A DNA stretch of 24,083 nt from a virus. Lineage: Duplodnaviria; Caudoviricetes. The position numbers were made by a program, and so were the translations under genes. Of this stretch, positions 189 to 19,035 are shown in pieces. Numbering within the stretch: the first letter of the stretch is position 1; every line of letters begins with the position of its first letter. The stretch covers positions 1 to 24,083 of IMG/VR virus record IMGVR_UViG_3300038674_000234, one strand, 5' to 3'. The notes beneath the pieces were generated by a model. That model had not been told where the DNA came from. It saw only the letters and a program-made list of their open reading frames with translations, and ran no database searches.

Positions 189-218
189 AAATGTATAATT
201 TTATTATAATAAAGGTGG

Positions 219-248
219 TTGACATCAATAGCTAACAAAACTTATGAT
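219..248 (+). promoter_or_regulatory. Candidate sigma-A promoter TTGACA-N18-TATGAT
   Basis: TTGACA at 219-224 and TATGAT at 243-248. AT-rich context makes a chance match possible. Confidence 0.35.
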
Positions 249-1241
249 CACAAGTGGTTCAAAAACAAAGTATATGAATATCATGGAAATAAAGTTGATC
301 TATTAAGTGAATACAACGGCGGAAATAAACAAATTAATATAGTATATCACTGTGAATTTCATGGAGACACATATAAGACAATTAATGCAAAAAATATTTG
401 TAAACCATATTTTTTACCGTGTAAAGAGTGCCAGAGTATCAATAAAAGAAAAAGTAGCGCGGCAAAAGAAAATAAAGGTAAAGAATACTATTATCAAAGA
501 CTAAAAGATTATTGTGAGTCCAGAGGTGGCACATTATTAAATAGTGAGTGGACTACAGCAAAGGATACATATCAGTTTAAATGTGCAAACATAGACCATC
601 CTGTTTTTTATAGTACAGCGGATTCTCTATATAGTGGTTCTCATTGGTGTCCATATTGCTGCGGTAGAAAGGGTAATTTTGAAGATGAAATAGTAGAAAT
701 TATTAAATCAAAAAAAGGAGAACTACTTAGTACATATATAAGTCAGGATAAATATGTTAAAGTTCTCTGTAAAGAACATAATTATGTTTGGGACATATTA
801 CCTTTTAATATTAAAAAGGGCAGGTGGTGTCCGGTATGCAATCTACCTTTTAGTGAGAAAACTGTTTTTGATTATTTAACCAATCATAATATTAGTTTTG
901 ATATTCAATATAAATTTGATAATTTATATGGTGAAAATAATGAATTGCTTAGATTTGATTTTGCTATATTTAAAAATAATAATAATAAAGAACTTTATTG
1001 TTTATTTGAAATTGATGATTGTGAACATTGGTATAATCATAAACAGGAACGTAGGGTTAAGGCAAGAGAAAGGGATATTCTTAAAAATCAATATTGTTTA
1101 AAAAACAATATAACATTTTATAGAATACCATATATATTTAGTAAAAAAGCAGTATCATACGTTGAATATTACGAATACTTAGATAGCCAATTAGGAAATA
1201 TTATAAAACCTCTATTAAATAAATGTGAGGGGGTTGTATAA
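228..1241 (+). CDS. Free-standing homing-endonuclease-like protein: Cys/His zinc-ribbon repeats plus C-terminal PD-(D/E)XK (DUF559/Vsr-like) nuclease
   Basis: CEFHG, CKEC, WCPYC and WCPVC motifs; C-terminal LRFDFAI...EIDDCEHW...DILKNQYC...FYRIPY. The track start TTG 219 abuts SD AAAGGTGG (211-218); ATA 228 is 9 nt from it. Confidence 0.8.
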   Translation: MANKTYDHKWFKNKVYEYHGNKVDLLSEYNGGNKQINIVYHCEFHGDTYKTINAKNICKPYFLPCKECQSINKRKSSAAKENKGKEYYYQRLKDYCESRGGTLLNSEWTTAKDTYQFKCANIDHPVFYSTADSLYSGSHWCPYCCGRKGNFEDEIVEIIKSKKGELLSTYISQDKYVKVLCKEHNYVWDILPFNIKKGRWCPVCNLPFSEKTVFDYLTNHNISFDIQYKFDNLYGENNELLRFDFAIFKNNNNKELYCLFEIDDCEHWYNHKQERRVKARERDILKNQYCLKNNITFYRIPYIFSKKAVSYVEYYEYLDSQLGNIIKPLLNKCEGVV

Positions 1242-1242
1242 T

Positions 1243-3918
1243 ATAGCTCTCGACAAGCAAGTACATATATACAGTTTAGATACAACAGCTTTCTTTACTG
1301 AAGAAGAATTGAGTTTACACAAACAAATAATTGAAATAAACAAAGAAAAGGAGATTTATCTTAACGGTAGAAAATATAAAGAATTAGTTGGTGCGGATAA
1401 AAATGGCTATCTTCAAATTTGTAGACGAAAAACAGAAGTAAAAAATAAATTATATGAATTATTCAAGGCGAATACATCTATTAGAGTTCTAAATCCTAAA
1501 TATATATCTAAATATAATGTGATATCTGTATTTGAGTCAACTCTAACAAGAACACTAAATATTGATACTAACCAACTTTCTGATGAAATAATAGTTGTAA
1601 GAGCTTATTATTATGATGTTCTTCACGATATGATTTGCAATGGATTTGCTTATAACGGAGAAAAATATAAATATTTTACTAGTTCTGCCGGACAAATACG
1701 TACAAAAAAAGCTGTATTCATTAAGGAGTCACTATGGGAAAAACACTGTAAAACATTAATGTGTGGACTGACATATGAGAGGATTAATGAGTGTGGAGGC
1801 GTTAATGTAAACAAATTTATGGCATATCTTGCTTTGCTTAACAGTGCCACAGACGTATTTGAAGGTTTTGATATCAATAAATGTATTGTTGTAGATGATC
1901 TTGAAACAACCATTAATAGCACTGTTGATTTCATTGATGATATTACATATGAAATAACTAGAAAAAATATGGATATTCCAATTGTTCATACAGATGGATG
2001 TGGTTTATGTCTTCCAAGTGTAAGTAAAAAGAATTTTATGATTAGGCTTCCTTGGATTAAAGGACTATTAGCAGTATGTGATTTTCGCAAATTTATTAAA
2101 AAGAAAAACGGAAATAAAATTATTAAAGACATTTATGGTAAAGCACATGACATAATTGAAGAAGATATTCAAATTATCTTTACTAAAAGTCAATTTAAAA
2201 TGTATAAATATTATAAGTCTTGGGACGAATATAAGAAATGTTTCACTAAATATAGGTGTCAGGCTGGATATTGTAATGTTGAGGATAATTATATAAAAAA
2301 TGCTTCCATTAATTATCAGATGCTCCAAACGTTAAATACAATGACTAATGAGGAATTACTTAAAATATCTGAATATTCTATAAATAAGATAAGCAATTTA
2401 TGTACATCATTAGATTCTATGTTGAGCGTATTTGGTATTAATGATGAATGTGAACAAAAGACGCCTCTTCAGGAATCGCTTAAATTATATCCAGAGTTGT
2501 TTACTGATTCATACATAAAAGATGTATTAAAGAAAATAAAAGCAAGCATTATAAAGAAATATAGGTCAGGTAAACTTGATATTAAAGGCAAATATACATT
2601 TATAATTCCTGATATATATGCAATTTGTGAGTATTTATTTTTAGACAAGAAGAATCCAGATGGACTAATAAGCAACGGTGAAGTATCATGTAGGCTATAT
2701 CCAACTGTTGATAAACTTGATTGTCTTCGTGCGCCTCATTTGATGACGGAACATGTTATTAGAAAAAATAAAATTACAAAAGAAATATCGGAATGGTTTT
2801 GCACAGATGCGCTTTATGTTGGTTGTCACGACATTATGAGTAAAATAATGATGTTTGATTGTGATGGAGATAAAAGCCTTGTTGTCGCTGATGAGACATT
2901 AATCAGAGTTGCGGATAGACACATAAAAATGTATGATATTGTTCCGTTATGTTATGACATGAAGAAATCAAATCCAGTAATCTTTAACGATGAAGAATTA
3001 TATAATGGTTTATATGCTGCGTATACTGGTGGTAATATAGGAGAAATCAGCAATACAATTACTAAAATATGGAATAAAGATGATTTTTGTATTGATGATT
3101 TAAGTATAATTAAAATACTTTGCATGGAAAATAATTATGTTATTGATTATGCAAAAACATTATATAAGCCTAAAAGACCAGAACATATAGACTCAATAAT
3201 CAAAGAGTACCAAAATCTAAAACTGCCACACTTTTTTAAATATGCGAAAGATAAGAAATCAACGGCAGTAAATAAGTTAAATAGAAAAGATGATTACAAT
3301 ACTGTAGTAAACAGACTTTTCTATTTGTTTAAAGATTTTAGGTTAAAATTCAATCTTTCTAACTTTGGTAGAATAGATTACAAACTTTTAATGTCAAATC
3401 CAGAAATTAAAATTGACAGCAATGTGATTGATAAATATTATGAATTTAATAAAGTTTATTGTTATAAATTAAGTATAAGCGATTCAAAATACGATGTTCA
3501 TAAATACTTAATTAAGGTTTTAAAGGATACTCTAAGTGAATTTAAGTATTCTGACGTTGAAATATGCGATATGCTTGTCAAAGAATTATTTCATGAAAAC
3601 AAAAATAAGGCAAAAGAGTCATTATGGTATTGTTATGGAGATATTATTTTAGATAACTTAAAAACAAACATAGTAGGATTAGATAAAATATGCAAAAAAT
3701 GTGGTAGTAGGTTTAAATCAAATTCAAAGGAAACACCATATTGTGATGTTTGTATTAAAAGGAAGAAAATTAAAGTAAAAATAATATTATGTGTTGATTG
3801 CTTCAAAGAAGTTGAAGTTGACGCTCGTAATATGACAAAGACCAGATGCAATGAATGTCAACATGTTAAAGATAAAGAGTTATCAAGAATTAGAGTTCAG
3901 AAATTTAGAAATAAATGA
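1243..3918 (+). CDS. yonO: YonO-like single-subunit (two-barrel) DNA-dependent RNA polymerase
   Basis: Catalytic MFDCDGD (DxDGD) motif, SSAGQIRTKK, TDGCG, RLPWIKG and LRAPH motifs, ~890 aa, four C-terminal CxxC pairs, position upstream of virion genes. Track start is 1225; ATA 1243 follows SD GAGGGGG. Confidence 0.9.
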   Translation: MALDKQVHIYSLDTTAFFTEEELSLHKQIIEINKEKEIYLNGRKYKELVGADKNGYLQICRRKTEVKNKLYELFKANTSIRVLNPKYISKYNVISVFESTLTRTLNIDTNQLSDEIIVVRAYYYDVLHDMICNGFAYNGEKYKYFTSSAGQIRTKKAVFIKESLWEKHCKTLMCGLTYERINECGGVNVNKFMAYLALLNSATDVFEGFDINKCIVVDDLETTINSTVDFIDDITYEITRKNMDIPIVHTDGCGLCLPSVSKKNFMIRLPWIKGLLAVCDFRKFIKKKNGNKIIKDIYGKAHDIIEEDIQIIFTKSQFKMYKYYKSWDEYKKCFTKYRCQAGYCNVEDNYIKNASINYQMLQTLNTMTNEELLKISEYSINKISNLCTSLDSMLSVFGINDECEQKTPLQESLKLYPELFTDSYIKDVLKKIKASIIKKYRSGKLDIKGKYTFIIPDIYAICEYLFLDKKNPDGLISNGEVSCRLYPTVDKLDCLRAPHLMTEHVIRKNKITKEISEWFCTDALYVGCHDIMSKIMMFDCDGDKSLVVADETLIRVADRHIKMYDIVPLCYDMKKSNPVIFNDEELYNGLYAAYTGGNIGEISNTITKIWNKDDFCIDDLSIIKILCMENNYVIDYAKTLYKPKRPEHIDSIIKEYQNLKLPHFFKYAKDKKSTAVNKLNRKDDYNTVVNRLFYLFKDFRLKFNLSNFGRIDYKLLMSNPEIKIDSNVIDKYYEFNKVYCYKLSISDSKYDVHKYLIKVLKDTLSEFKYSDVEICDMLVKELFHENKNKAKESLWYCYGDIILDNLKTNIVGLDKICKKCGSRFKSNSKETPYCDVCIKRKKIKVKIILCVDCFKEVEVDARNMTKTRCNECQHVKDKELSRIRVQKFRNK

Positions 3919-4020
3919 CTATGTAACGCTATGTTTTTAAAAGGCAAAACCATTTAAGTCATTGTGCCACAACGGGTTTAATATAAATCATTCTGTTTTT
4001 TACTAAATTTAGCAGACAAT

Positions 4021-4076
4021 TATGGAGAGCAAGTAACCAAATCTACAAAAATATAGGTTAAACTGCTCACTTCATA
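4021..4076 (+). promoter_or_regulatory. Long interrupted stem-loop in the post-RNAP intergenic region
   Basis: TATGGA/TTCATA, GAGCA/TGCTC and TAACC/GGTTA pair in nested order. Confidence 0.45.
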
Positions 4077-4112
4077 TTACAGAATTATAATAGTAAAGGA
4101 CTGAAGAAATAC

Positions 4113-4310
4113 ATAATACAGATATCGCAAGCTGAAGCCAATTTTATAAGAGAACATACAACTAGTAAAGATCAGCAAATACATATGGCTTCACGCAGAA
4201 AGAAAAGCCGGGGTGTCGGCAATGGGAAAACCTATTATATGATTGAATCAAAAAGTAACTTAGCACTACTCAAGCAATTTAGAGACAAATTAAGTTTAAA
4301 TAAACAATGA
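4113..4310 (+). CDS. Small basic hypothetical protein, 65 aa, missing from the ORF track
   Basis: (M)IQISQAEANFIREH...SRRKKSRG...KTYYMIES...LNKQ*. SD AAAGGA at 4095-4100, ATA start, stop overlaps the next gene's SD. Confidence 0.65.
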   Translation: MIQISQAEANFIREHTTSKDQQIHMASRRKKSRGVGNGKTYYMIESKSNLALLKQFRDKLSLNKQ

Positions 4311-4328
4311 GGGGAATGAAATAAGAAC

Positions 4329-5498
4329 ACGAATAGAGACGAGTTTCTTAAACGACAATTAGACCTACTCAAAGAAAAACAAATTAATTCAGATATAGAG
4401 TGGCAGGACGTAGCAGAATTCAGGGGACTAGGAGAACATAGAGATACCGTGTCTAAAGGGTCTAAAATCCTCTACGAATATCTTGATGCTGGTTGGAATT
4501 TAGTTCCTCCTTCAGAACCAATTACTGCAAGCGATCAGTTAAGGGCTATTCAAAAAGAAAGATATAAAATTCAAGCTGAGAAACTTGAAAATAATAGATG
4601 GCTTAGAGAGAACGCTAGAGATGAACTGATTCTTGAAAAAATAATTGAGGCTGTCAATAATCTTAAACAGCTTGACATACCCGATGTAATTCCGGTCATA
4701 CATAACAAACGCGAATATTCACTTCTCTTCGGTGATGCTCATTTTGGTGTTGATTTTGAAATTAAAGGATTATTTGGAGAAACATTAAGTAAATATAATC
4801 CAGAAATATTTGAATCTCGTATGTGGGATTTACTTAATAAAGTTGTGGATTATATAAGACAGTTTCAAATAACTCACCTTAATGTTTTTGAATTTGGGGA
4901 TTTCAGCGATGGAATCTTACGTGTATCTCAATTAATGAAACTTAGATACGGAGTAATTGAAGGTACAATTTACTTTGCTAATTTTATCAGTAATTGGCTA
5001 AACAAGTTATCTGAATATACTGCTATTGAATATCAAATGGTTGAAGATGCTAATCATACTCAACTGCGCTTACTTGACCAGCCTAAAGGTACTTTTGAAA
5101 AAGAAAATACAAGTTTGTTTGTGAAAGAACTTATTCAAGCAAGACTACAAAATAATCCTAATTTTAAATTTGTATGCAATCCTACTGGTATGATTTTTAA
5201 AAATATATGCGGTTTTAATTTCTTAGGTTTTCACGGAGAAATAAAAAATCTTGAGCAAGCAATAAAGGATTTTACAAAGAAATATAATACCACAATACAT
5301 ATATTATCGGCTGGTCATTTGCATCATTCAAAATCTGAGGCAGTTGGATTATGTAGTGATACTGTCAATGTACCTAGTATAGTAGGTGTTGATCCTTTCT
5401 CGTTTTCAATTTCAAAACTGTCTAATGCAGGAGCTACTATTCTTGGTATTGAAGAAGGTAAAGGCAAGGTATCGGAAGAAAATTTGAAACTTAATTAA
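4329..5498 (+). CDS. Calcineurin-like metallophosphoesterase (YonJ-like) with N-terminal helical region
   Basis: GDAHFG, GDFSDG, ANH, HGE and GHLH motifs. The frame is open upstream of GTG 4449 back to 4320; proposed start ACG 4329. Confidence 0.85.
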   Translation, partial: TNRDEFLKRQLDLLKEKQINSDIEWQDVAEFRGLGEHRDTVSKGSKILYEYLDAGWNLVPPSEPITASDQLRAIQKERYKIQAEKLENNRWLRENARDELILEKIIEAVNNLKQLDIPDVIPVIHNKREYSLLFGDAHFGVDFEIKGLFGETLSKYNPEIFESRMWDLLNKVVDYIRQFQITHLNVFEFGDFSDGILRVSQLMKLRYGVIEGTIYFANFISNWLNKLSEYTAIEYQMVEDANHTQLRLLDQPKGTFEKENTSLFVKELIQARLQNNPNFKFVCNPTGMIFKNICGFNFLGFHGEIKNLEQAIKDFTKKYNTTIHILSAGHLHHSKSEAVGLCSDTVNVPSIVGVDPFSFSISKLSNAGATILGIEEGKGKVSEENLKLN

Positions 5499-5516
5499 AT
5501 AGGAGAACAATAATAT

Positions 5517-5819
5517 ATGAATTATCCAAAAGTAATTTTTACATATGTAGATACCGAAGGAAAAGAAACCAGCCTGTCCTCAGAAAACATCTTAGGTTGT
5601 TGTGCCGAGTGTGAACTTCAAAAAATCGTTAGTGTCTTTGATGATTTTATCGGTTGTATTATTAATACTGTAGCAGCGAAGTACCCAGAAGAGGAAGAGA
5701 AAGACGATGATGAGGACGATGAAGAAACTAAAGTAAATAAGGCTAATTTTGATCGTAGATTCTTTGGCAACCATGATGATGATGACAAAGATGATAATTG
5801 GGTTGGTTTAACCGACTAA
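5517..5819 (+). CDS. Hypothetical protein with acidic C-terminal tracts
   Basis: SD AGGAGA, ATG start, EEEEKDDDEDDEE and DDDDKDD runs. Confidence 0.7.
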   Translation: MNYPKVIFTYVDTEGKETSLSSENILGCCAECELQKIVSVFDDFIGCIINTVAAKYPEEEEKDDDEDDEETKVNKANFDRRFFGNHDDDDKDDNWVGLTD

Positions 5820-5830
5820 CACAAATCTAT

Positions 5831-5962
5831 ATTGGTGCTTCTCCACCTAAATTATAAAAAAGCGAGACTTATAGAAGTAGCATGGGATGGGAAGATAACT
5901 ACTTCCCTTCCCTGCTGAATATGTATCATTGGTGTTTAATTAATTTTAATTATTTAGGAGGT
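5831..5962 (+). promoter_or_regulatory. Structured 5' leader of the Hsp20-like gene
   Basis: Hairpin 5879-5916, small stem GGTG/CACC (5834-5847), and CCACCTAAAT (5843-5852) complementary to ATTTAGGAGG (5952-5961). Confidence 0.5.
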
Positions 5963-5970
5963 TTTATTTT

Positions 5971-6348
5971 ATGAGCGATTTATTTGAAACATTTTTTGAT
6001 GAATTTTCACTTTTTGGAAAACCATATGTTATTTACAACACAAATGGTATTCGTGATTTAATGCCTACATTTTGGCGAGAAAAAGACTATGGATATCGTT
6101 GTACAGCTAAGACGCTTGGTGTGGACGAAAAAGACGTTTGTGTTGAACTAACTGACTATGGTATTAAACTTTTTGGTAAATCTGAACTTGAGGGACAGTG
6201 GTATGACACGACTCTAAAATTACCAATTGCTAAAACGGTCATGAACGATATTAAAGAAATCAAAACGTTTACGAAGAACGGGATAACATTTGTTGACTTG
6301 TATTTAGACAAACCGGAAAAGAAAAAGATTCTTATTAATGGTAAATAA
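5971..6348 (+). CDS. Small heat-shock protein (Hsp20/alpha-crystallin-like)
   Basis: 125 aa; Phe-rich N-terminus (DLFETFFDEF), LGVDEKDVCV, IKTFTKNGITFVDL and C-terminal ILI (IxI) motif; SD AGGAGG. Confidence 0.7.
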   Translation: MSDLFETFFDEFSLFGKPYVIYNTNGIRDLMPTFWREKDYGYRCTAKTLGVDEKDVCVELTDYGIKLFGKSELEGQWYDTTLKLPIAKTVMNDIKEIKTFTKNGITFVDLYLDKPEKKKILINGK

Positions 6349-6356
6349 ACTAGCGT

Positions 6357-6394
6357 GGGCAGGGGCAATTACATCTCCCCTGCCCTATTTAATT
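6357..6394 (+). terminator. GC-rich hairpin after the Hsp20 gene (terminator or stabiliser)
   Basis: GGGCAGGGG-N11-CCCCTGCCC followed by a weak T tract (TATTTAATT). Confidence 0.55.
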
Positions 6395-6417
6395 AACCAG
6401 TGAAAGGAGTGCTATTT

Positions 6418-7557
6418 ATAGCCGGAAGACCAAAAGGTTCTACAAATAAGCCAAAACCTAAATCACCAAACAGCAAACGCCAACAGGATATAAATAGTGA
6501 AAATCCTGCTGTTTATAAATGTACCAGATGCGGTAAAACAAAGAGTGACCCAAAAGGGTTTTTCTTTATGTCTAAAACTAGCCCGTTGTTTGTGTCAAAT
6601 GAACTTTTCGCTTGCATTTGCAGTGACTGTTCTAATGAATTATTTGAGAATTACAAAGTTAAATACAAAGACGAAAAACTTGCTCTGATGCTTATTTGTT
6701 GCCATTTGGATGTATTTTTTTCTGAAGAACTATATGAACAAGTTAAGGATAATGCAAATTTCTCACTTGGTAATTATTTGAAGCACATAAATCTGTCACA
6801 ATATAAAGCGAAAAATTTCATTACATATTTAATAAATGTCAATCAGCTAAACGGCTGGTTAAAAGACACCACTGAAATAAGAGATGACAAGGAAGCAAAT
6901 TGGAAGGCTTCTGATTATAAGAATAAAAGATATGTATTAGAATCAATTGGATATGATTGTTTTGATGATGAGTCGTATACAGATGAAAACAGAAAGTTCC
7001 TTTATAATACGCTTGCTGATTATTTAACAGACGATATTATAGAAGATCAGCATAAAATACAAAACGTCATATTAATGGTAAAAACAATACTTCAAGTTGA
7101 GAACACAGACAAATTAATTAACGCAGAATTTAAGAAAAAAATTATAGATAAAGACATTATAAAACCATTAACTGAAATAAAAAACAACCTCACTAATACT
7201 ATAACAAAGATTGCAAACGAAAATGGCATTGCGGCTAAGACAAGCGGTAAATCAGGCAAGGGTGCAAATACATTAACTAACATTATGAAGGAAATGGCTG
7301 AAAATGGTTTTGAAGAAATTAAAACAAACATATTTAACATAAAGATGTGCGAAACATTTAAAAACATTTCAGATATTAGCAATAAAAGTTTATTTGAACA
7401 GCTAAACTATCAAACAGACGATTATGCTAGAATGGTAGCCAAACAAAGAGAAGAACTGCAATTGTTATTTAAAGAAAAAGAAAAACTAGAAGAATCTTTA
7501 AGATTAATAAAGATAGAAAACAAAGAACTAAAGCAACAAATAGAAGGTGATAAATAG
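6418..7557 (+). CDS. YonG-like protein, candidate small terminase/DNA-packaging accessory with zinc finger
   Basis: Directly upstream of TerL; GRPKG AT-hook-like motif, CTRC...CSDC, C-terminal coiled coil. Track start is 6400; ATA 6418 lies 6 nt after SD AAAGGAGTG. Confidence 0.65.
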   Translation: MAGRPKGSTNKPKPKSPNSKRQQDINSENPAVYKCTRCGKTKSDPKGFFFMSKTSPLFVSNELFACICSDCSNELFENYKVKYKDEKLALMLICCHLDVFFSEELYEQVKDNANFSLGNYLKHINLSQYKAKNFITYLINVNQLNGWLKDTTEIRDDKEANWKASDYKNKRYVLESIGYDCFDDESYTDENRKFLYNTLADYLTDDIIEDQHKIQNVILMVKTILQVENTDKLINAEFKKKIIDKDIIKPLTEIKNNLTNTITKIANENGIAAKTSGKSGKGANTLTNIMKEMAENGFEEIKTNIFNIKMCETFKNISDISNKSLFEQLNYQTDDYARMVAKQREELQLLFKEKEKLEESLRLIKIENKELKQQIEGDK

Positions 7558-7559
7558 GA

Positions 7560-9392
7560 ATGATTACTATTTATAATAAGCCTTCTCAAAAAGAAATATC
7601 ACAGCGCAAACTTGAGACTTACGACAAATATTGTAAAGTAATTCAGTGGGGCAGAAGTGATCCAATAAAGTTTATTTCTAGATTTATGGGGATTGAATTA
7701 CTAGATATTCAGAAATATGCTATATACAATTCTTGGACAAGAGATTTTAATCTATGGCTAGAAAGTCGTAACGCTGGGAAATCTACAAAATTAGCAATAT
7801 ACCCAATGGCTAGAAGTTTGCTTATTCCTTATCACGTTACATACTATATTGGTAACAGCGGTGATCAAGCAAAAGAATCCTTTAAGAAGATGGAGAAGAT
7901 TGCTAAAAGAGAAATTGAGTCTTTTGTTGGAAGTACTGATGTTTTCTTTAATGAATTAAGGATAAATAGCCCGACTTCCGATGGGTTTATTCATAATCCA
8001 GCATCATTTAAGTGTGAGTTGTTTAATAACTCAGAAATATATACTTTAAATAGTGACATCATTAATATTAAAGGTAAGAGAGCATCACTTGTATGTTATG
8101 ATGAGGCGGGTTGGTTCTCAGATGAGTTATTTATTCAGACCGAACAGTTTGTCAACCAAGACGAAAACTTTAAACTTGGCGGAGGCATTGATATAGGGAT
8201 TGAACCAAAGGGATTTCCACGACAATTATTATATGCTTCTTCTGCGTCTGATACTGATTCTGGGTTTTACAAGAAATACAGACAATTTTCCGAAAGAATG
8301 TTGATGGGTGATCCAAAATATTTTGTTTGCGATTTTAACGTAGATGTTGTAATGAATGCAACTTATAATGGTGATCCTTATCCTCCACTCATAAGTAAAG
8401 ACAAAGTTGATAAAGCTATGGAAGATAATAGAGATAAGGCGCTTAGAGAGTTGTATAATAAGTTTTCAGCAGATAGTCATGAAGGCCAGATATTAACACG
8501 CAGGGAGATAATGCAACACGAAATTAAATGTCCACCACTCCTATGTAATGATACTGGTAATAAATTGTTTTTGATAGTTTGGGACTGTGCTAGAATAAAT
8601 GACAATAGTGTAATAGGCATTGCTGAGTTGCAAGACGATCCAGAACGCGGTTGGATAATGCATATATGTAATATAATTAGTCTTGTTGATATTAGATCAA
8701 AGAAAAAAATACAGATGATAATGCCAGAACAGGTGAAACAATTTAAGTCAATATTACTTGATTATAATGCAAGCGAAAAAAAGAAACTTGATTATGAAAA
8801 TATAAAGCGAATTGTTGCCGATGCAGGAGCTGGCGGTCAAATGATTGGTGGTGTTTCAGACTACTTACTAGAAGAATGGAATGGTAAAGATGGGAAAACA
8901 CATAAGGGAATTATTGATAGGTCGCATAAGGCCAATGAAGTTTCATCTAAAACATTTCCAAATGCATTAGATATTATGACCTTAGTTGATCCAAAGAGTA
9001 ATAGAAATGATATTTTTGATGCTGCTGAAAAGATGACAAAGTTAGGAGTAGTAACATTTCCGGCAGATATTGATGGTAAAGACTATATTATAACAATAGA
9101 TAATGAAGGCAATGAAAATACTTATCAGTTAACAGATGATGAACAAAACGCTTTATTACAAATAGAGTTGATGAAAAGTGAAATAATAACAATGTGTAAA
9201 TATACGGATAAGGGAAATGTCTCTTATAATTTCCCTCCAGATAAAAGAAATATAATGTTTGATGACCGTGCCTTTGTGTACGGTCTTCTTTGTTGGTATT
9301 TAGCTATTTTACGAAGAAATCAAGTAATTGATAAACCAAAAGATAAACTTAGTGATTTCGATTTTCAGTTTCGTCAACCAAAAATTAGATAA
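7560..9392 (+). CDS. terL: Terminase large subunit (YonF-like)
   Basis: Walker A SRNAGKS, Walker B LVCYDEAG, motif III ASSAS, RNase H-like acidic motifs VWDCAR, DAGAGG and DDRAF. Confidence 0.9.
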   Translation: MITIYNKPSQKEISQRKLETYDKYCKVIQWGRSDPIKFISRFMGIELLDIQKYAIYNSWTRDFNLWLESRNAGKSTKLAIYPMARSLLIPYHVTYYIGNSGDQAKESFKKMEKIAKREIESFVGSTDVFFNELRINSPTSDGFIHNPASFKCELFNNSEIYTLNSDIINIKGKRASLVCYDEAGWFSDELFIQTEQFVNQDENFKLGGGIDIGIEPKGFPRQLLYASSASDTDSGFYKKYRQFSERMLMGDPKYFVCDFNVDVVMNATYNGDPYPPLISKDKVDKAMEDNRDKALRELYNKFSADSHEGQILTRREIMQHEIKCPPLLCNDTGNKLFLIVWDCARINDNSVIGIAELQDDPERGWIMHICNIISLVDIRSKKKIQMIMPEQVKQFKSILLDYNASEKKKLDYENIKRIVADAGAGGQMIGGVSDYLLEEWNGKDGKTHKGIIDRSHKANEVSSKTFPNALDIMTLVDPKSNRNDIFDAAEKMTKLGVVTFPADIDGKDYIITIDNEGNENTYQLTDDEQNALLQIELMKSEIITMCKYTDKGNVSYNFPPDKRNIMFDDRAFVYGLLCWYLAILRRNQVIDKPKDKLSDFDFQFRQPKIR

Positions 9393-9411
9393 ATGAGGGG
9401 TGGTGAAAATA

Positions 9412-10890
9412 TTGCCAGATGAAGAAACAAAAGTAGCACCAAAACAGTATGATTTTTCTCATCTCAATAATTTTGCACAACTAGCAAAATTAACTTTACA
9501 AGATTTAAGAAAAAATAATAAAGACACACTATTCTTTAAGAAATTCACTAAAGAAAATATTATTGATTATCTTGAATCACCGGATAAGAATGAGAAAAAT
9601 TTAAGAAATGCATGTATATTCCTATACAATGCATCTAGTCATTTTAAACGTTTAGTTCAGTATTTTGCACGATTATACTTGTTGCAATATATTATTATTC
9701 CTCTTCAATTTGATAAAGTTAACGAAAAAACATTTTTAATACAATATAAAAAAGTTTTAAACATGGTTGAAAATATGAACTTGAAACATGAAATGGTTAA
9801 AGTTCTGAATACTGTTTATCGTGAAGATGTTTTTTACGGATATGAATACTCAACTGAAGAATCATATTATATTCGCAAATTGAATCCAGATTATTGCCAA
9901 ATATCCAGCGTTGAAGATGGATGTTATAATTTTGCATTTGATTTTTCTTATTTTAATTTAAAAAAAGATAAACTTGAATCTTATGGTGAAGAGTTTATAG
10001 AAAAATATCGACTGTATGCTGGACATAACGGTACAAAGGGAAATTCAGAATTAAAATGGCAAGAACTAGATAGTAAAAAAACTATATGTATTAAGGCAAA
10101 TGAAGATTTAGATTATCTTATACCACCTTTTGTTGGCGTACTTGAAGCAATATATGATCTTCAGGATTATAAATTACTTAAAAAAGTTGAAAACCAAAAT
10201 GACAATTACAAAATTTTGAATTGTATTATTCCTACAAATCCAGAAGGAGAATTATTATTAGAAGAGCCATTAGCTTTAAAATATTATCATCTTTTAGAAA
10301 AAGCTGTGCCAGATGGCATTGGATTATCACTCAGCCCGATGAAAATAGAGGCGTTCACATTTGCAAATACTTCTGCCGCTGAAAAAGATGCTGTAGCACA
10401 GGCTACCGCTGAAGTTTGGAATAGTGCTGGGGTGTCATCTCTTATCTTTAATAATACATCTGCTGGTTCAACTGGTTTGGTACAGTCAATACGGGCAGAT
10501 ATAGATGTTTCTAGTGCTGTTATCCGACAAATAGAAAGATGGATTAATAGAAAACTTAAAAATCTAGATGCTAAGTACAAATTTAAAATACAAATTTTAG
10601 ATGTAACAAGATTTAATCAGACAGAAATGTTTGATATGTACTTAAAAGGTGGAAATAGTGGATTACCAGTAAAAACTGCTTTAAATGCAATTCTTGGATA
10701 TAGCCCACAAGACATGTTGGCAATGGGCATGTTAGAAAATGATATCTTGAAAATGAGAGATACTATTTGCGGTCAGCCACTATTGTCATCTAGTACAATG
10801 TCTCCAGATAATGAAGGCGGAAGACCACAACAAGAAACCGTTGATGATAAGGGGCAAATTACAAGAGATACCAATGGAAACGATAGATAG
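9412..10890 (+). CDS. Portal protein (YonE-like)
   Basis: Follows TerL, ~490 aa, C-terminal GGRP tail typical of portals. TTG 9412 follows SD GGTGGTGA (track start 9400). Confidence 0.8.
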   Translation: MPDEETKVAPKQYDFSHLNNFAQLAKLTLQDLRKNNKDTLFFKKFTKENIIDYLESPDKNEKNLRNACIFLYNASSHFKRLVQYFARLYLLQYIIIPLQFDKVNEKTFLIQYKKVLNMVENMNLKHEMVKVLNTVYREDVFYGYEYSTEESYYIRKLNPDYCQISSVEDGCYNFAFDFSYFNLKKDKLESYGEEFIEKYRLYAGHNGTKGNSELKWQELDSKKTICIKANEDLDYLIPPFVGVLEAIYDLQDYKLLKKVENQNDNYKILNCIIPTNPEGELLLEEPLALKYYHLLEKAVPDGIGLSLSPMKIEAFTFANTSAAEKDAVAQATAEVWNSAGVSSLIFNNTSAGSTGLVQSIRADIDVSSAVIRQIERWINRKLKNLDAKYKFKIQILDVTRFNQTEMFDMYLKGGNSGLPVKTALNAILGYSPQDMLAMGMLENDILKMRDTICGQPLLSSSTMSPDNEGGRPQQETVDDKGQITRDTNGNDR

Positions 10891-16117: not shown

Positions 16118-16146
16118 TATGAAAAGGAGTTGAACAATACTAAATT

Positions 16147-16584
16147 ATGGCTACTCCTTATTCAGATATATATAATCAATTTCTTGAACAAATTACGGAT
16201 ACGGATTTACTTGCTCTCACTCAATCAAACAGAGAATCATTATTGTTTGGCTTACTAAAAAGAGCATGTAATAGATTTCTAAGAATTTGCAAATATGATT
16301 TATCAGATAAGAATGACACACTTAAAACGTTTAATTTTGATTTACCAGACGAAGAAAGTAGCATTATTGTTCACGGAATGATAGCAGAGTGGTATAAACC
16401 AAAATATAATTTTAACGAGAATCTAAAAAATGTTTTAAATACAAAAGATTATAATCAATATTCTCCTGCCAATCTACTTAAAGAAACTAGAGAATCTTAT
16501 AAAAACGCAAATAGAGAATTTGAATCGATGATGAACAAATACTCTTATGTGCATGGAAGTATAGAGGACTTAACTACATCATGA
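16147..16584 (+). CDS. Head-tail adaptor (YomZ-like)
   Basis: MATPYSDIY...FNFDL...KDYNQYSPANLL; size and synteny. Confidence 0.65.
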   Translation: MATPYSDIYNQFLEQITDTDLLALTQSNRESLLFGLLKRACNRFLRICKYDLSDKNDTLKTFNFDLPDEESSIIVHGMIAEWYKPKYNFNENLKNVLNTKDYNQYSPANLLKETRESYKNANREFESMMNKYSYVHGSIEDLTTS

Positions 16585-17424: not shown

Positions 17425-17476
17425 CACTAAATTAACACAAAATTTATTTAGAAAGGAGGATTAATAATAATTAATT

Positions 17477-18538
17477 ATGGCAGATACAGAGTTAGATGTA
17501 AGTGGTATTGATTGGACATTTTATGAAACTAGATTAAATATTAACGGATCAACTCAGAGAGATAGAAATATCAATAATACAAAAAACGCTATAAAAAACA
17601 AGGTTATTAATTCTCCTTCTTGTGAAACAGTCACCGTCAATGGTGCTTCAAAGTCATTAATCATAATTGATACATCTAAAGATAATGTAAAAGATATTTC
17701 TTCAATTCCAGACGAAACATTCAGTGCCGGGGATGTCGTAGTTAGAGGTAGTTTAACTTGGTTAGTTACTGAAAGTGGAACAAACAGCATTGATCAGTGT
17801 ATAGGAAAAATGACACAATGCAACTACACCTTAAAATTTCAAGACGAAACAACAGGAGAAATCTTATCCTATCCAGCCATATTCTCAACAATTGGTCTTA
17901 CCAATACTGGTAATATTGATTACAGCAAACTTCTTCCAACACTTGAAGGTAAAATATCACTTAGGATAACCTTTGACGAATATACCAGCAAGTTAAGAGA
18001 AGGACGTAGGCTAATAATCGACAACCGTAGTAATATAGAACTTCCTAATACATATGTGATCAGCAATATGGATGTTGTTGAATATTATGGTGGAATTATA
18101 TTTATGACACTTGAAAGAGATGAGTACAGGCCAGATAATGATAGAAAAGACTTAGGCGTATGTGATTACTTTACACTACCTGTTATTCATACTGGCGAAG
18201 CTAGAATAACCTATACTGGTACGCTTGGAATAACAGTTGGATATAGTAAGACGTTTATAGGCAGATTCTATGAAATTGACGAAGATGGGATTGAGACTGA
18301 ACTTACCAATATAGTACCTGTGTGGTCACTTAATCATAGTTCAGGCTCAACTAGTAAGTTTACTACAATAATAGATAATCAAAACAAAACAATTAAGATT
18401 ACTGCGGCTGATGATGATTTGCTTATTAACACAACGCTTATATTAACACTGACTGAGTATGTTGATCCAGAAGACCCAGAGCCGCCTGATACTCCATTGA
18501 CAAATAGCATTACTATACCAATTAAAGCATTATACTAA
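17477..18538 (+). CDS. Head-closure/connector protein (YomX-like) with probable C-terminal Ig-like domain
   Basis: GDVV...WLV...MTQCNYTLKF motif, beta-rich C-terminus, SD GAAAGGAGG. Confidence 0.6.
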   Translation: MADTELDVSGIDWTFYETRLNINGSTQRDRNINNTKNAIKNKVINSPSCETVTVNGASKSLIIIDTSKDNVKDISSIPDETFSAGDVVVRGSLTWLVTESGTNSIDQCIGKMTQCNYTLKFQDETTGEILSYPAIFSTIGLTNTGNIDYSKLLPTLEGKISLRITFDEYTSKLREGRRLIIDNRSNIELPNTYVISNMDVVEYYGGIIFMTLERDEYRPDNDRKDLGVCDYFTLPVIHTGEARITYTGTLGITVGYSKTFIGRFYEIDEDGIETELTNIVPVWSLNHSSGSTSKFTTIIDNQNKTIKITAADDDLLINTTLILTLTEYVDPEDPEPPDTPLTNSITIPIKALY

Positions 18539-18567
18539 ATAGACTTAGGTGAGGTGAAATATATAGA

Positions 18568-19035
18568 TTGAAAACATTTCTTAAACAGTTTATGCCTTAC
18601 AAAAAAAAGATAATGCAGCTTCTTATTGGTAATTCTAATATAGTAAATGCTATTGATTCAACTAAGTCTGATGATCCGTATGAATTAATCTGGAATAACA
18701 TCTTCCCTACTCATAACGTTACAAATATAAATGATGGGGTAACGAGAGTTTATATTACTATTGATGTGTTTTCACCAAAAGTATATGACAAGACTTATAA
18801 AGATGTTTATGTTGTATTTAATGTATTTGCACATGATAGTAAACAACAAACTGGCGATGGTTATTGCGTGGTGGATTATATTCAGGGTGAGATTGATGAG
18901 ATGTTCAATGGTAATGAAAGCTTCGGGATAGGATATCTTGAATTAAAGAGTAATAATTTAATTAAGGTTAATGATCACTATAACGGTACATCAACTGCAT
19001 TTGTTGTGACTAATTTCAATAGATTAGAGTTATGA
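18568..19035 (+). CDS. Tail completion/terminator-like protein (YomW-like)
   Basis: 155 aa, IDEMFNG...GIGYL motif, synteny. Confidence 0.55.
   Translation: MKTFLKQFMPYKKKIMQLLIGNSNIVNAIDSTKSDDPYELIWNNIFPTHNVTNINDGVTRVYITIDVFSPKVYDKTYKDVYVVFNVFAHDSKQQTGDGYCVVDYIQGEIDEMFNGNESFGIGYLELKSNNLIKVNDHYNGTSTAFVVTNFNRLEL

Follow-up and report, generated by a model that had tools for sequence, protein, structure and literature searches.

Probable ATA and ACG start codons on the RNA polymerase and neighbouring genes of an SPbeta-like phage

The stretch of DNA analysed here (IMG/VR virus record IMGVR_UViG_3300038674_000234, 24,083 nt; 'the window') comes from an SPbeta-like (YonO-type) Firmicute phage and covers the arm that runs from the polymerase to the lysis genes. 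Five genes in it, that of the RNA polymerase (RNAP) among them, are probably read from ATA or ACG codons. The closest described cases come from Staphylococcus aureus, where Ribo-RET identified four AUA or AUU starts, in infC, ccpN, cvfC1 and citZ, behind strong and extended Shine–Dalgarno (SD) sequences (Kohl et al., 2026; PMC13009471). In reporters such starts gave about 10% of the output of AUG; the AUA of ccpN rose to 30% in rich medium, an effect that was gene-specific, being modest for citZ and absent for cvfC1 (PMC13009471). The near-cognate start of ccpN is also found in Bacillus subtilis (PMC13009471), and infC, the gene of initiation factor 3 (IF3), is translationally autoregulated through its AUU or AUA start (cited in PMC13009471 and PMC5499595). 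In Escherichia coli extracts, AUA was barely reduced by a tenfold increase in IF3, and AUA and AUU mRNAs were those most inhibited by ppGpp and in poor-medium extracts (PMC5499595). For temperate phages relaxed initiation features have been proposed (10.1101/2021.04.21.440840), and a single CTG start among 217 open reading frames (ORFs) is reported in the Perkons paper (PMC13245101). Start codons are not discussed in a preprint comparing SPbeta (10.1101/2021.11.22.469490), and no report of a phage-wide ATA/ATT start habit was found in the literature searched, most subscription journals being outside its coverage.

The codons in the window resemble those of ccpN and cvfC1 in that a Firmicute ribosome would meet a strong SD and a near-cognate AUA or AUU at a conserved position. 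Near-cognate starts are usually treated as a few exceptions per bacterial chromosome, four in S. aureus, whereas here about 3% of the genes of a large family of phages have them, as does a quarter of the late RNAPs in that family, and ATC and ACG are used as well. The SDs in the window are strong, but the GGAGGUGAU (AU) extension of the S. aureus starts is absent at most of the sites. With infC the phage genes share the codons, and discrimination by IF3 is possible in principle; unlike infC they form no feedback loop, as initiation factors are missing from their products and neither IF3 nor another fidelity factor was found encoded in five phage genomes. The yonO–yonJ–yonG–yonF–yonE module of SPbeta (Forrest et al., 2017; PMC5467207) has the same gene order and the same families. 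In SPbeta, yonO starts at TTG and yonJ and yonG at ATG, whereas the window has ATA, ACG and ATA at these genes, together with an HNH gene that abuts the RNAP start. Transcription of the late operon by YonO is a feature described for SPbeta only; the RNAP of the window is known here from its sequence, which is 45.5% identical to SPbeta YonO across 93% of the length, matches PF05183 and retains the invariant DxDGD catalytic motif (residues 539–543). With this full-length homology, and heading a yonJ–yonG–terminase–portal–structural arm, it is a YonO-type enzyme.

Probable start codons in the window and in homologues

An earlier note on this DNA had placed SD-led ATA or ACG codons at positions 228, 1243, 4113, 4329 and 6418, and all five motif–spacer–codon strings are found there (Table 1). 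With SD strength expressed as an anti-SD pairing energy score and spacing measured from the final G of the GGAGG register, the RNAP codon ATA1243 has an SD of -14.8 at spacing 9, ATA6418 one of -14.1 at spacing 7, ATA228 one of -12.9 at spacing 12 and ACG4329 one of -10.8 at spacing 11; the weakest of the five is ATA4113 (-8.6, spacing 10). Neighbouring TTG and GTG codons reach -6.2 or weaker at usable spacing (TTG1234, -6.2; GTG1225, -1.4; GTG6409, -6.2; TTG219, no better than -2.4 at a spacing of at least 4), and the first canonical codon in the frame of ACG4329 is GTG4449, 40 codons in. These alternatives sit in or against the SD, much as the earlier note had it, lack conservation or would remove conserved sequence. 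The SDs of the five sites are at a normal distance from the near-cognate codon and no canonical codon is usable; four of these SDs are strong, at -10 or better, a level reached at spacing 6–12 by 59 of the 2345 ATA, ATT, ATC and ACG triplets in the window. The contigs of run X1, possibly the source sample, do not differ at any of the five codons, so sequencing error there can be set aside. In strain contigs of other studies, for which 17 of 57 differences were not printed, no listed change touches the five codons, and GTG4449 is replaced by GTA in runs X2 and X4.

The five sites coincide with the start-codon column of their homologues, weakly so for 4113. In relatives, ATG is one of seven codons found in the shared column (ATG, TTG, GTG, ATA, ATT, ATC and ACG). 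Because the SD points at a codon where relatives carry start codons, the ATA and ACG codons of the window are likely to be genuine starts.

Of 99 RNAP representatives with less than 90% identity, 92 could be anchored on an N-terminal motif that is conserved; the anchor was missing from six, and SPbeta, with a TTG start further upstream, was left out. The column holds ATG in 42, TTG in 24, GTG in three, ATT in 13, ATA in eight and ATC in two, that is, canonical codons in 69 and ATA, ATT or ATC (ATH) in 23. All 23 ATH codons lie at spacing 7–9, although the rule would have permitted 6–12, and in relative L095 a stop codon stands immediately upstream of the ATA, leaving no alternative start. Parsimony on the RNAP tree requires at least 11 changes between ATH and canonical states, compared with a mean of 20.8 after shuffling, so the ATH state is inherited and has also arisen or disappeared several times. 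Two clades are entirely ATH (seven proteins at 72–86% identity and three at 60–66%); within them ATA, ATT and ATC interchange and ATG does not occur. ATG serves 42 of the 92 RNAPs, against 828 of 1163 genes genome-wide.

The neighbouring families behave similarly. Among 44 YonG homologues, ten starts are non-canonical, 31 canonical and three uncalled, and in the ten-member clade of the window nine are non-canonical, with four different codons (ATA five times, ACG twice, ATC and ATT once each, and one ATG). For YonJ the figures are 12, 37 and three of 52; in the column of ACG4329, L388 and L089 have ATA, and L381 and L386 have TTG. Four of nine HNH family members start at ATA. Homologues of gene 4113 are weak (E = 0.006–0.6) and have TTG, ATA or ATT in the same column; in L388 an ATG-started look-alike precedes the YonJ gene. 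A special role for the ATA-GCN context shared by three of the sites was dismissed, since genes with canonical starts have alanine as their second commonest residue at position two (122 of 1119).

The RNAP start of the window is further covered by a predicted 10-bp stem (positions 1209–1252) that pairs the SD with the ATA region and holds the stop codon of the HNH gene in its 3-nt loop. Such a hairpin could couple RNAP translation to the HNH gene. As a conserved element it was rejected: its energy of -11 kcal/mol is not significant (z = -1.55; 16 of 200 shuffles as good), and in the 23 ATH RNAPs own and swapped halves do not differ (40/200).

Frequency in the genomes of phages and hosts

Starts were called in phages and hosts by one rule that makes no use of homology, on ORFs of 120 codons or more. 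Six YonO phages with an ATH polymerase gave 28 non-canonical and 571 canonical calls (727 ORFs); for another six, SPbeta among them, whose polymerase starts canonically, the calls were 16 and 548 (646 ORFs), and for six other Firmicute phages, with only 60 of the 132 kb of phiCD211, five and 358 (405 ORFs). Samples of three low-GC host chromosomes yielded one non-canonical and 470 canonical calls (524 ORFs); two high-GC hosts yielded 11 and 393 (681 ORFs), with many spurious SDs and no in-frame excess. Behind orphan SDs, ATH codons are in excess in the reading frame in both YonO sets (25/88 in frame versus 12/180 out of frame, p = 1.6e-5, with an ATH polymerase; 13/48 versus 2/96, p = 3e-5, with a canonical one); the other phages gave 4/24 versus 2/48 (p = 0.10), and the host chromosomes show no such excess. 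With the RNAP genes removed, non-canonical starts number 39 of 1152 in YonO phages against one of 471 in the low-GC hosts, which are not the true hosts of these phages (about 16-fold, p = 2.5e-5); against the other phages p = 0.049.

In SPbeta the rule recovers two starts that are already in RefSeq, youA (ATT at 45295) and yomF (CTG at 26974). With SD-led ATA codons as starts, it makes yoqJ 52 residues longer and yoqL five. Both genes (NC_001884, L319; yoqJ 88434–89105, yoqL 89353–90060) look longer than annotated, and in yoqJ the added stretch contains the beginning of the profile match. The habit would also explain mis-annotation elsewhere: of 120 YonG relatives in databases, 59 are without the N-terminal CxxC region, and 44 of these begin at an internal Met-Ser-Lys.

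The non-canonical calls do not follow the late programme. Across 12 phage genomes they make up 11 of 350 in the late arm and 28 of 802 in other regions (p = 0.86); the sole enriched region is the first 12 kb after the RNAP (6/66 versus 33/1086 elsewhere, p = 0.02). Classed with PHROGs after the fact, and against a background not fully classified, so that any lean towards DNA-acting enzymes is descriptive, the 44 called proteins comprise five polymerases, five DNA methyltransferases, three HNH/endonucleases, three resolvase-type nucleases, one each of exonuclease, primase, integrase and peptidase, two YpsA-like proteins, two portals, one YonG and one head-region protein, the rest being of unknown function. 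By family, 45 of 192 called RNAP, YonJ-like, YonG-like and HNH genes are non-canonical, against 35 of 504 in all others and five of 108 in eleven packaging and structural families, a comparison made after the fact with related members of families picked because of the window. No non-canonical start was called among 23 genes of the terminase large subunit (TerL), 15 of family 23 (virion structural) and 17 of HU. This survey by gene class, which the earlier note had proposed, set late and other regions level.

The further claim that genes from TerL onward use canonical starts fits the sequence, yet is uncertain, as ATA or ATT codons compete nearby: ATA7554 at spacing 6 with ATG7560 at 12 for TerL, ATA9409 at 8 with TTG9412 at 11 for the portal, and ATT14396 at 9 with ATG14399 at 12 for the predicted major capsid gene, which is assigned by synteny. 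Since all three have a better-spaced ATA or ATT beside the canonical codon, the border at TerL is not sharp. Nor is the cluster uniform, two genes inside it, at 5517 and 5971, starting at ATG.

Possible explanations

We lean, with some reserve, towards a constant throttle that is selected on certain enzymes needed at low dose and tolerated elsewhere. Given a strong SD at the right spacing, the ribosome of the Firmicute host would be able to position initiator tRNA on AUA or ACG as near-cognate codons, with a constant output predicted at roughly a tenth to a third of that of an AUG start; the five genes are thus likely to be made at a permanently low level. This would act as a fixed limit on proteins needed little or harmful in excess, such as the RNAP, the YonJ-like nuclease, YonG, homing endonucleases, methylases and resolvases, over a background of about 3% of genes in which such starts are tolerated. 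It would not be a timed gate for late genes and would need no phage factor: host ribosomes should suffice, because AUA and AUU starts work in S. aureus (PMC13009471) and in E. coli extracts (PMC5499595). The codons, the columns in homologues, the in-frame and phage-over-host excesses and the spread over gene classes are observed, whereas we infer initiation at these codons, a low output and selection for low dose; the exchange of one weak codon for another in deep clades, with no return to ATG, suggests selection for low output, and there are signs that near-cognate starts are kept by selection in YonO phages.

Several observations weigh against this explanation. In E. coli extracts AUA can equal AUG, so that output may not be low (PMC5499595), and three quarters of the RNAPs do without ATH starts. 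The count of ATH RNAPs may be too high: L042, L092 and L131 have a TTG two codons downstream as a possible alternative, the RNAP of D-1873 is annotated in GenBank from a downstream TTG, and a stricter caller finds 19 rather than 23. SDs are no stronger on ATH than on ATG RNAPs (median -13.6 versus -12.95, p = 0.94), and compensating SD strength was discarded as an idea, the genome-wide difference being biased by thresholds. The rule errs both ways, calling ACG for TerL of SPP1, whose annotated start lies upstream, and missing the D-1873 polymerase; the choice of host samples and the descriptive nature of the functional classes, noted above, count here as well.

Tolerated drift alone is a less probable account. 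AT-biased mutation would turn ATG into ATA, ATT or ACG, strong SDs would rescue the genes and purging would be weak in temperate phages, with low output not favoured. The even spread of calls over late and other regions speaks for drift, as do the prevalence of ATA (a G-to-A transition) among non-canonical calls, the 5/363 in other Firmicute phages, the lack of SD compensation among RNAPs and the relaxed initiation proposed for temperate phages (10.1101/2021.04.21.440840). However, drift leaves the strong family bias unaccounted for (23/92 RNAPs against none in TerL, family 23 and HU), as it does the deep clades in which one weak codon replaces another though ATG is a single step away and the rarity of ATG on RNAPs compared with the genome as a whole.

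It is conceivable, if doubtful, that SPbeta-like phages select isoleucine-type start codons on the RNAP and other DNA-acting enzymes as a sensor of the translational state of the host, AUA, AUU and AUC initiation rising in well-fed cells or when fidelity is slack at induction, so that the late programme would be tuned by the start codon alone, with no phage factor. A narrower, condition-sensitive throttle, in which AUA and AUU starts scale the RNAP and other enzymes with host nutrient state through ppGpp and initiator tRNA supply and late transcription rises in well-fed hosts, we regard as improbable. The response of ccpN to rich medium (PMC13009471) and the sensitivity of AUA and AUU mRNAs to ppGpp and poor medium (PMC5499595) speak for it, and the RNAP, strongly enriched for ATH starts, controls the whole late operon (PMC5467207); against this, the medium effect in S. 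aureus was gene-specific (PMC13009471) and three quarters of the RNAP relatives have canonical codons.

The gate proposed in the earlier note, by which IF3 would hold down the late genes for the RNAP and for packaging as long as initiation fidelity is not relaxed, is very unlikely. An IF3 check does exist in these hosts, as infC in four relatives' genomes has an SD-led ATT in frame, and the 12 kb behind the RNAP are enriched; yet non-canonical starts are not confined to late and packaging genes, early enzymes carrying them too. Nor could the gate be family-wide, since 69 of 92 RNAP relatives and SPbeta yonO use ATG, TTG or GTG. In SPbeta, YonO transcribes the late operon from upstream of yonK, downstream of yonO, under transcriptional control (PMC5467207), so the polymerase is an activator of late genes and not itself a late gene. 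A relaxed fidelity also found no agent: AUA is little affected by tenfold IF3 in vitro (PMC5499595), and profiles of IF3_C, IF1, S21 and SUI1 matched nothing in five phage genomes (two complete) while detecting positive controls, which speaks against a phage-encoded relaxer of these four types, though a small anti-IF3 protein of another kind is conceivable. A phage initiator tRNA with an isoleucine anticodon was likewise rejected: the initiator's stem of three GC pairs is absent from every Ile(TAT/GAT/AAT) tRNA whose anticodon arm was resolved (leaving aside an Ile(TAT), an Ile(AAT) and several Met tRNAs), several relatives with ATH starts have no tRNA near the RNAP and the window has none. 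Least credible is an artefact in which the genes start at nearby or internal ATG, GTG or TTG codons: in-frame codons of this kind occur near four sites and public gene calls use them (P0001, the YonG of the window, is called six residues longer), but these codons lie in or against the SD, are unconserved or would truncate a conserved region, strain contigs have lost GTG4449, L095 has no alternative and the in-frame ATH excess is significant.

The mechanism itself is already known, and ATT and CTG starts are already in the SPbeta annotation. What is new here are the controls with hosts and unrelated phages, the even spread over late and early genes, the persistence of weak codons in deep clades of YonO polymerases and of YonG, and sites in SPbeta itself where such starts can be tested. 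If near-cognate starts are indeed kept by selection, start-codon choice would be a routine dose control in temperate Firmicute phages. Four sites native to SPbeta (youA, yomF, yoqJ and yoqL) are open to direct test in B. subtilis 168.

Gene map and minor observations

On the + strand and in the order of SPbeta, the window encodes genes from an HNH-type endonuclease through the RNAP, the YonJ-like and YonG-like genes, TerL, portal and structural genes to an endolysin (Table 1 gives the part discussed here). Relatives were found within genomes of Clostridia and Bacilli. The stop of the HNH gene lies 1 nt before the RNAP start. The YonG-like gene may be the terminase small subunit, judging from its position before TerL.

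Table 1. Features of the window around the five SD-led codons (ATA and ACG starts are probable)
Feature	Position	Strand	Basis or remark
SD (211–219) and ATA228 start of HNH-type endonuclease gene	211..230	+	homologue starts ATG/TTG/ATA
HNH/homing-type endonuclease, 337 aa from ATA	228..1241	+	phrog_559, E = 1e-34
SD (1227–1233) and ATA1243 start of RNAP	1227..1245	+	homologue start columns
YonO-type single-chain DNA-dependent RNA polymerase, 891 aa from ATA	1243..3918	+	SPbeta YonO identity, PF05183, DxDGD
Weak SD (4095–4100), ATA4113, small gene of 65 aa	4095..4310	+	SD -8.6; least secure of the five
SD (4309–4319, overlapping upstream stop), ACG4329, YonJ-like exonuclease-family gene, 389 aa	4309..5498	+	phrog_284
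Acidic 100-aa gene within cluster, ordinary ATG start	5517..5819	+	
125-aa gene within cluster, ordinary ATG start, strong SD	5971..6348	+	faint Hsp20 match below cut-off
SD (6403–6411), ATA6418, YonG-like gene, 379 aa, N-terminal CxxC	6403..7557	+	phrog_3314; PF27269 YonG_N
Terminase large subunit; ATG7560 likely, ATA7554 competing	7554..9392	+	
Portal; start TTG9412 or ATA9409	9409..10890	+	

Among related portals, those of G006 and of the G003 prophage start at ATA and ATC. The G006 portal (L185) begins I-G-R-P-K-G-T-T-N-K-P-K and the YonG of the window I-A-G-R-P-K-G-S-T-N-K-P-K, nearly the same basic peptide, in both cases behind ATA; we take it to be an AT-hook-like module common to unrelated genes. 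Three structural genes of the window have their strong SD (16144–16147, 17474–17477 and 18559–18568) 13–17 bases from the canonical codon, with an ATT or ATA nearer, and their starts are uncertain. A G+C-rich hairpin at 6357–6385 (-19.2 kcal/mol), between the 125-aa gene and the SD of YonG, resembles a terminator or processing site within the late arm; strain contigs carry insertions of 15 and 24 bases just behind it.

In Lachnospiraceae relatives, an HU-like family that follows the RNAP starts at TTG in 34 of 50 and at ATA or ACG in five, whereas another HU family has ATG in 15 of 17. Large tRNA clusters of relatives contain unusually long tRNAs (92–94 nt) called Ile(TAT) (L007, 20169–20260; L013, 10813–10904; L033, 19969–20062; L100, 20242–20334), some with odd bases 3' of the anticodon, and L050 has a Met-like tRNA with an AAT anticodon. 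SD-led ATA, ATC or ATT candidates also occur in unrelated Firmicute phages, namely phi3626 (L370), phage K (L368) and phiCD211 (L375 and L376), among them a 958-aa protein of phi3626 with an SD of -20.8.

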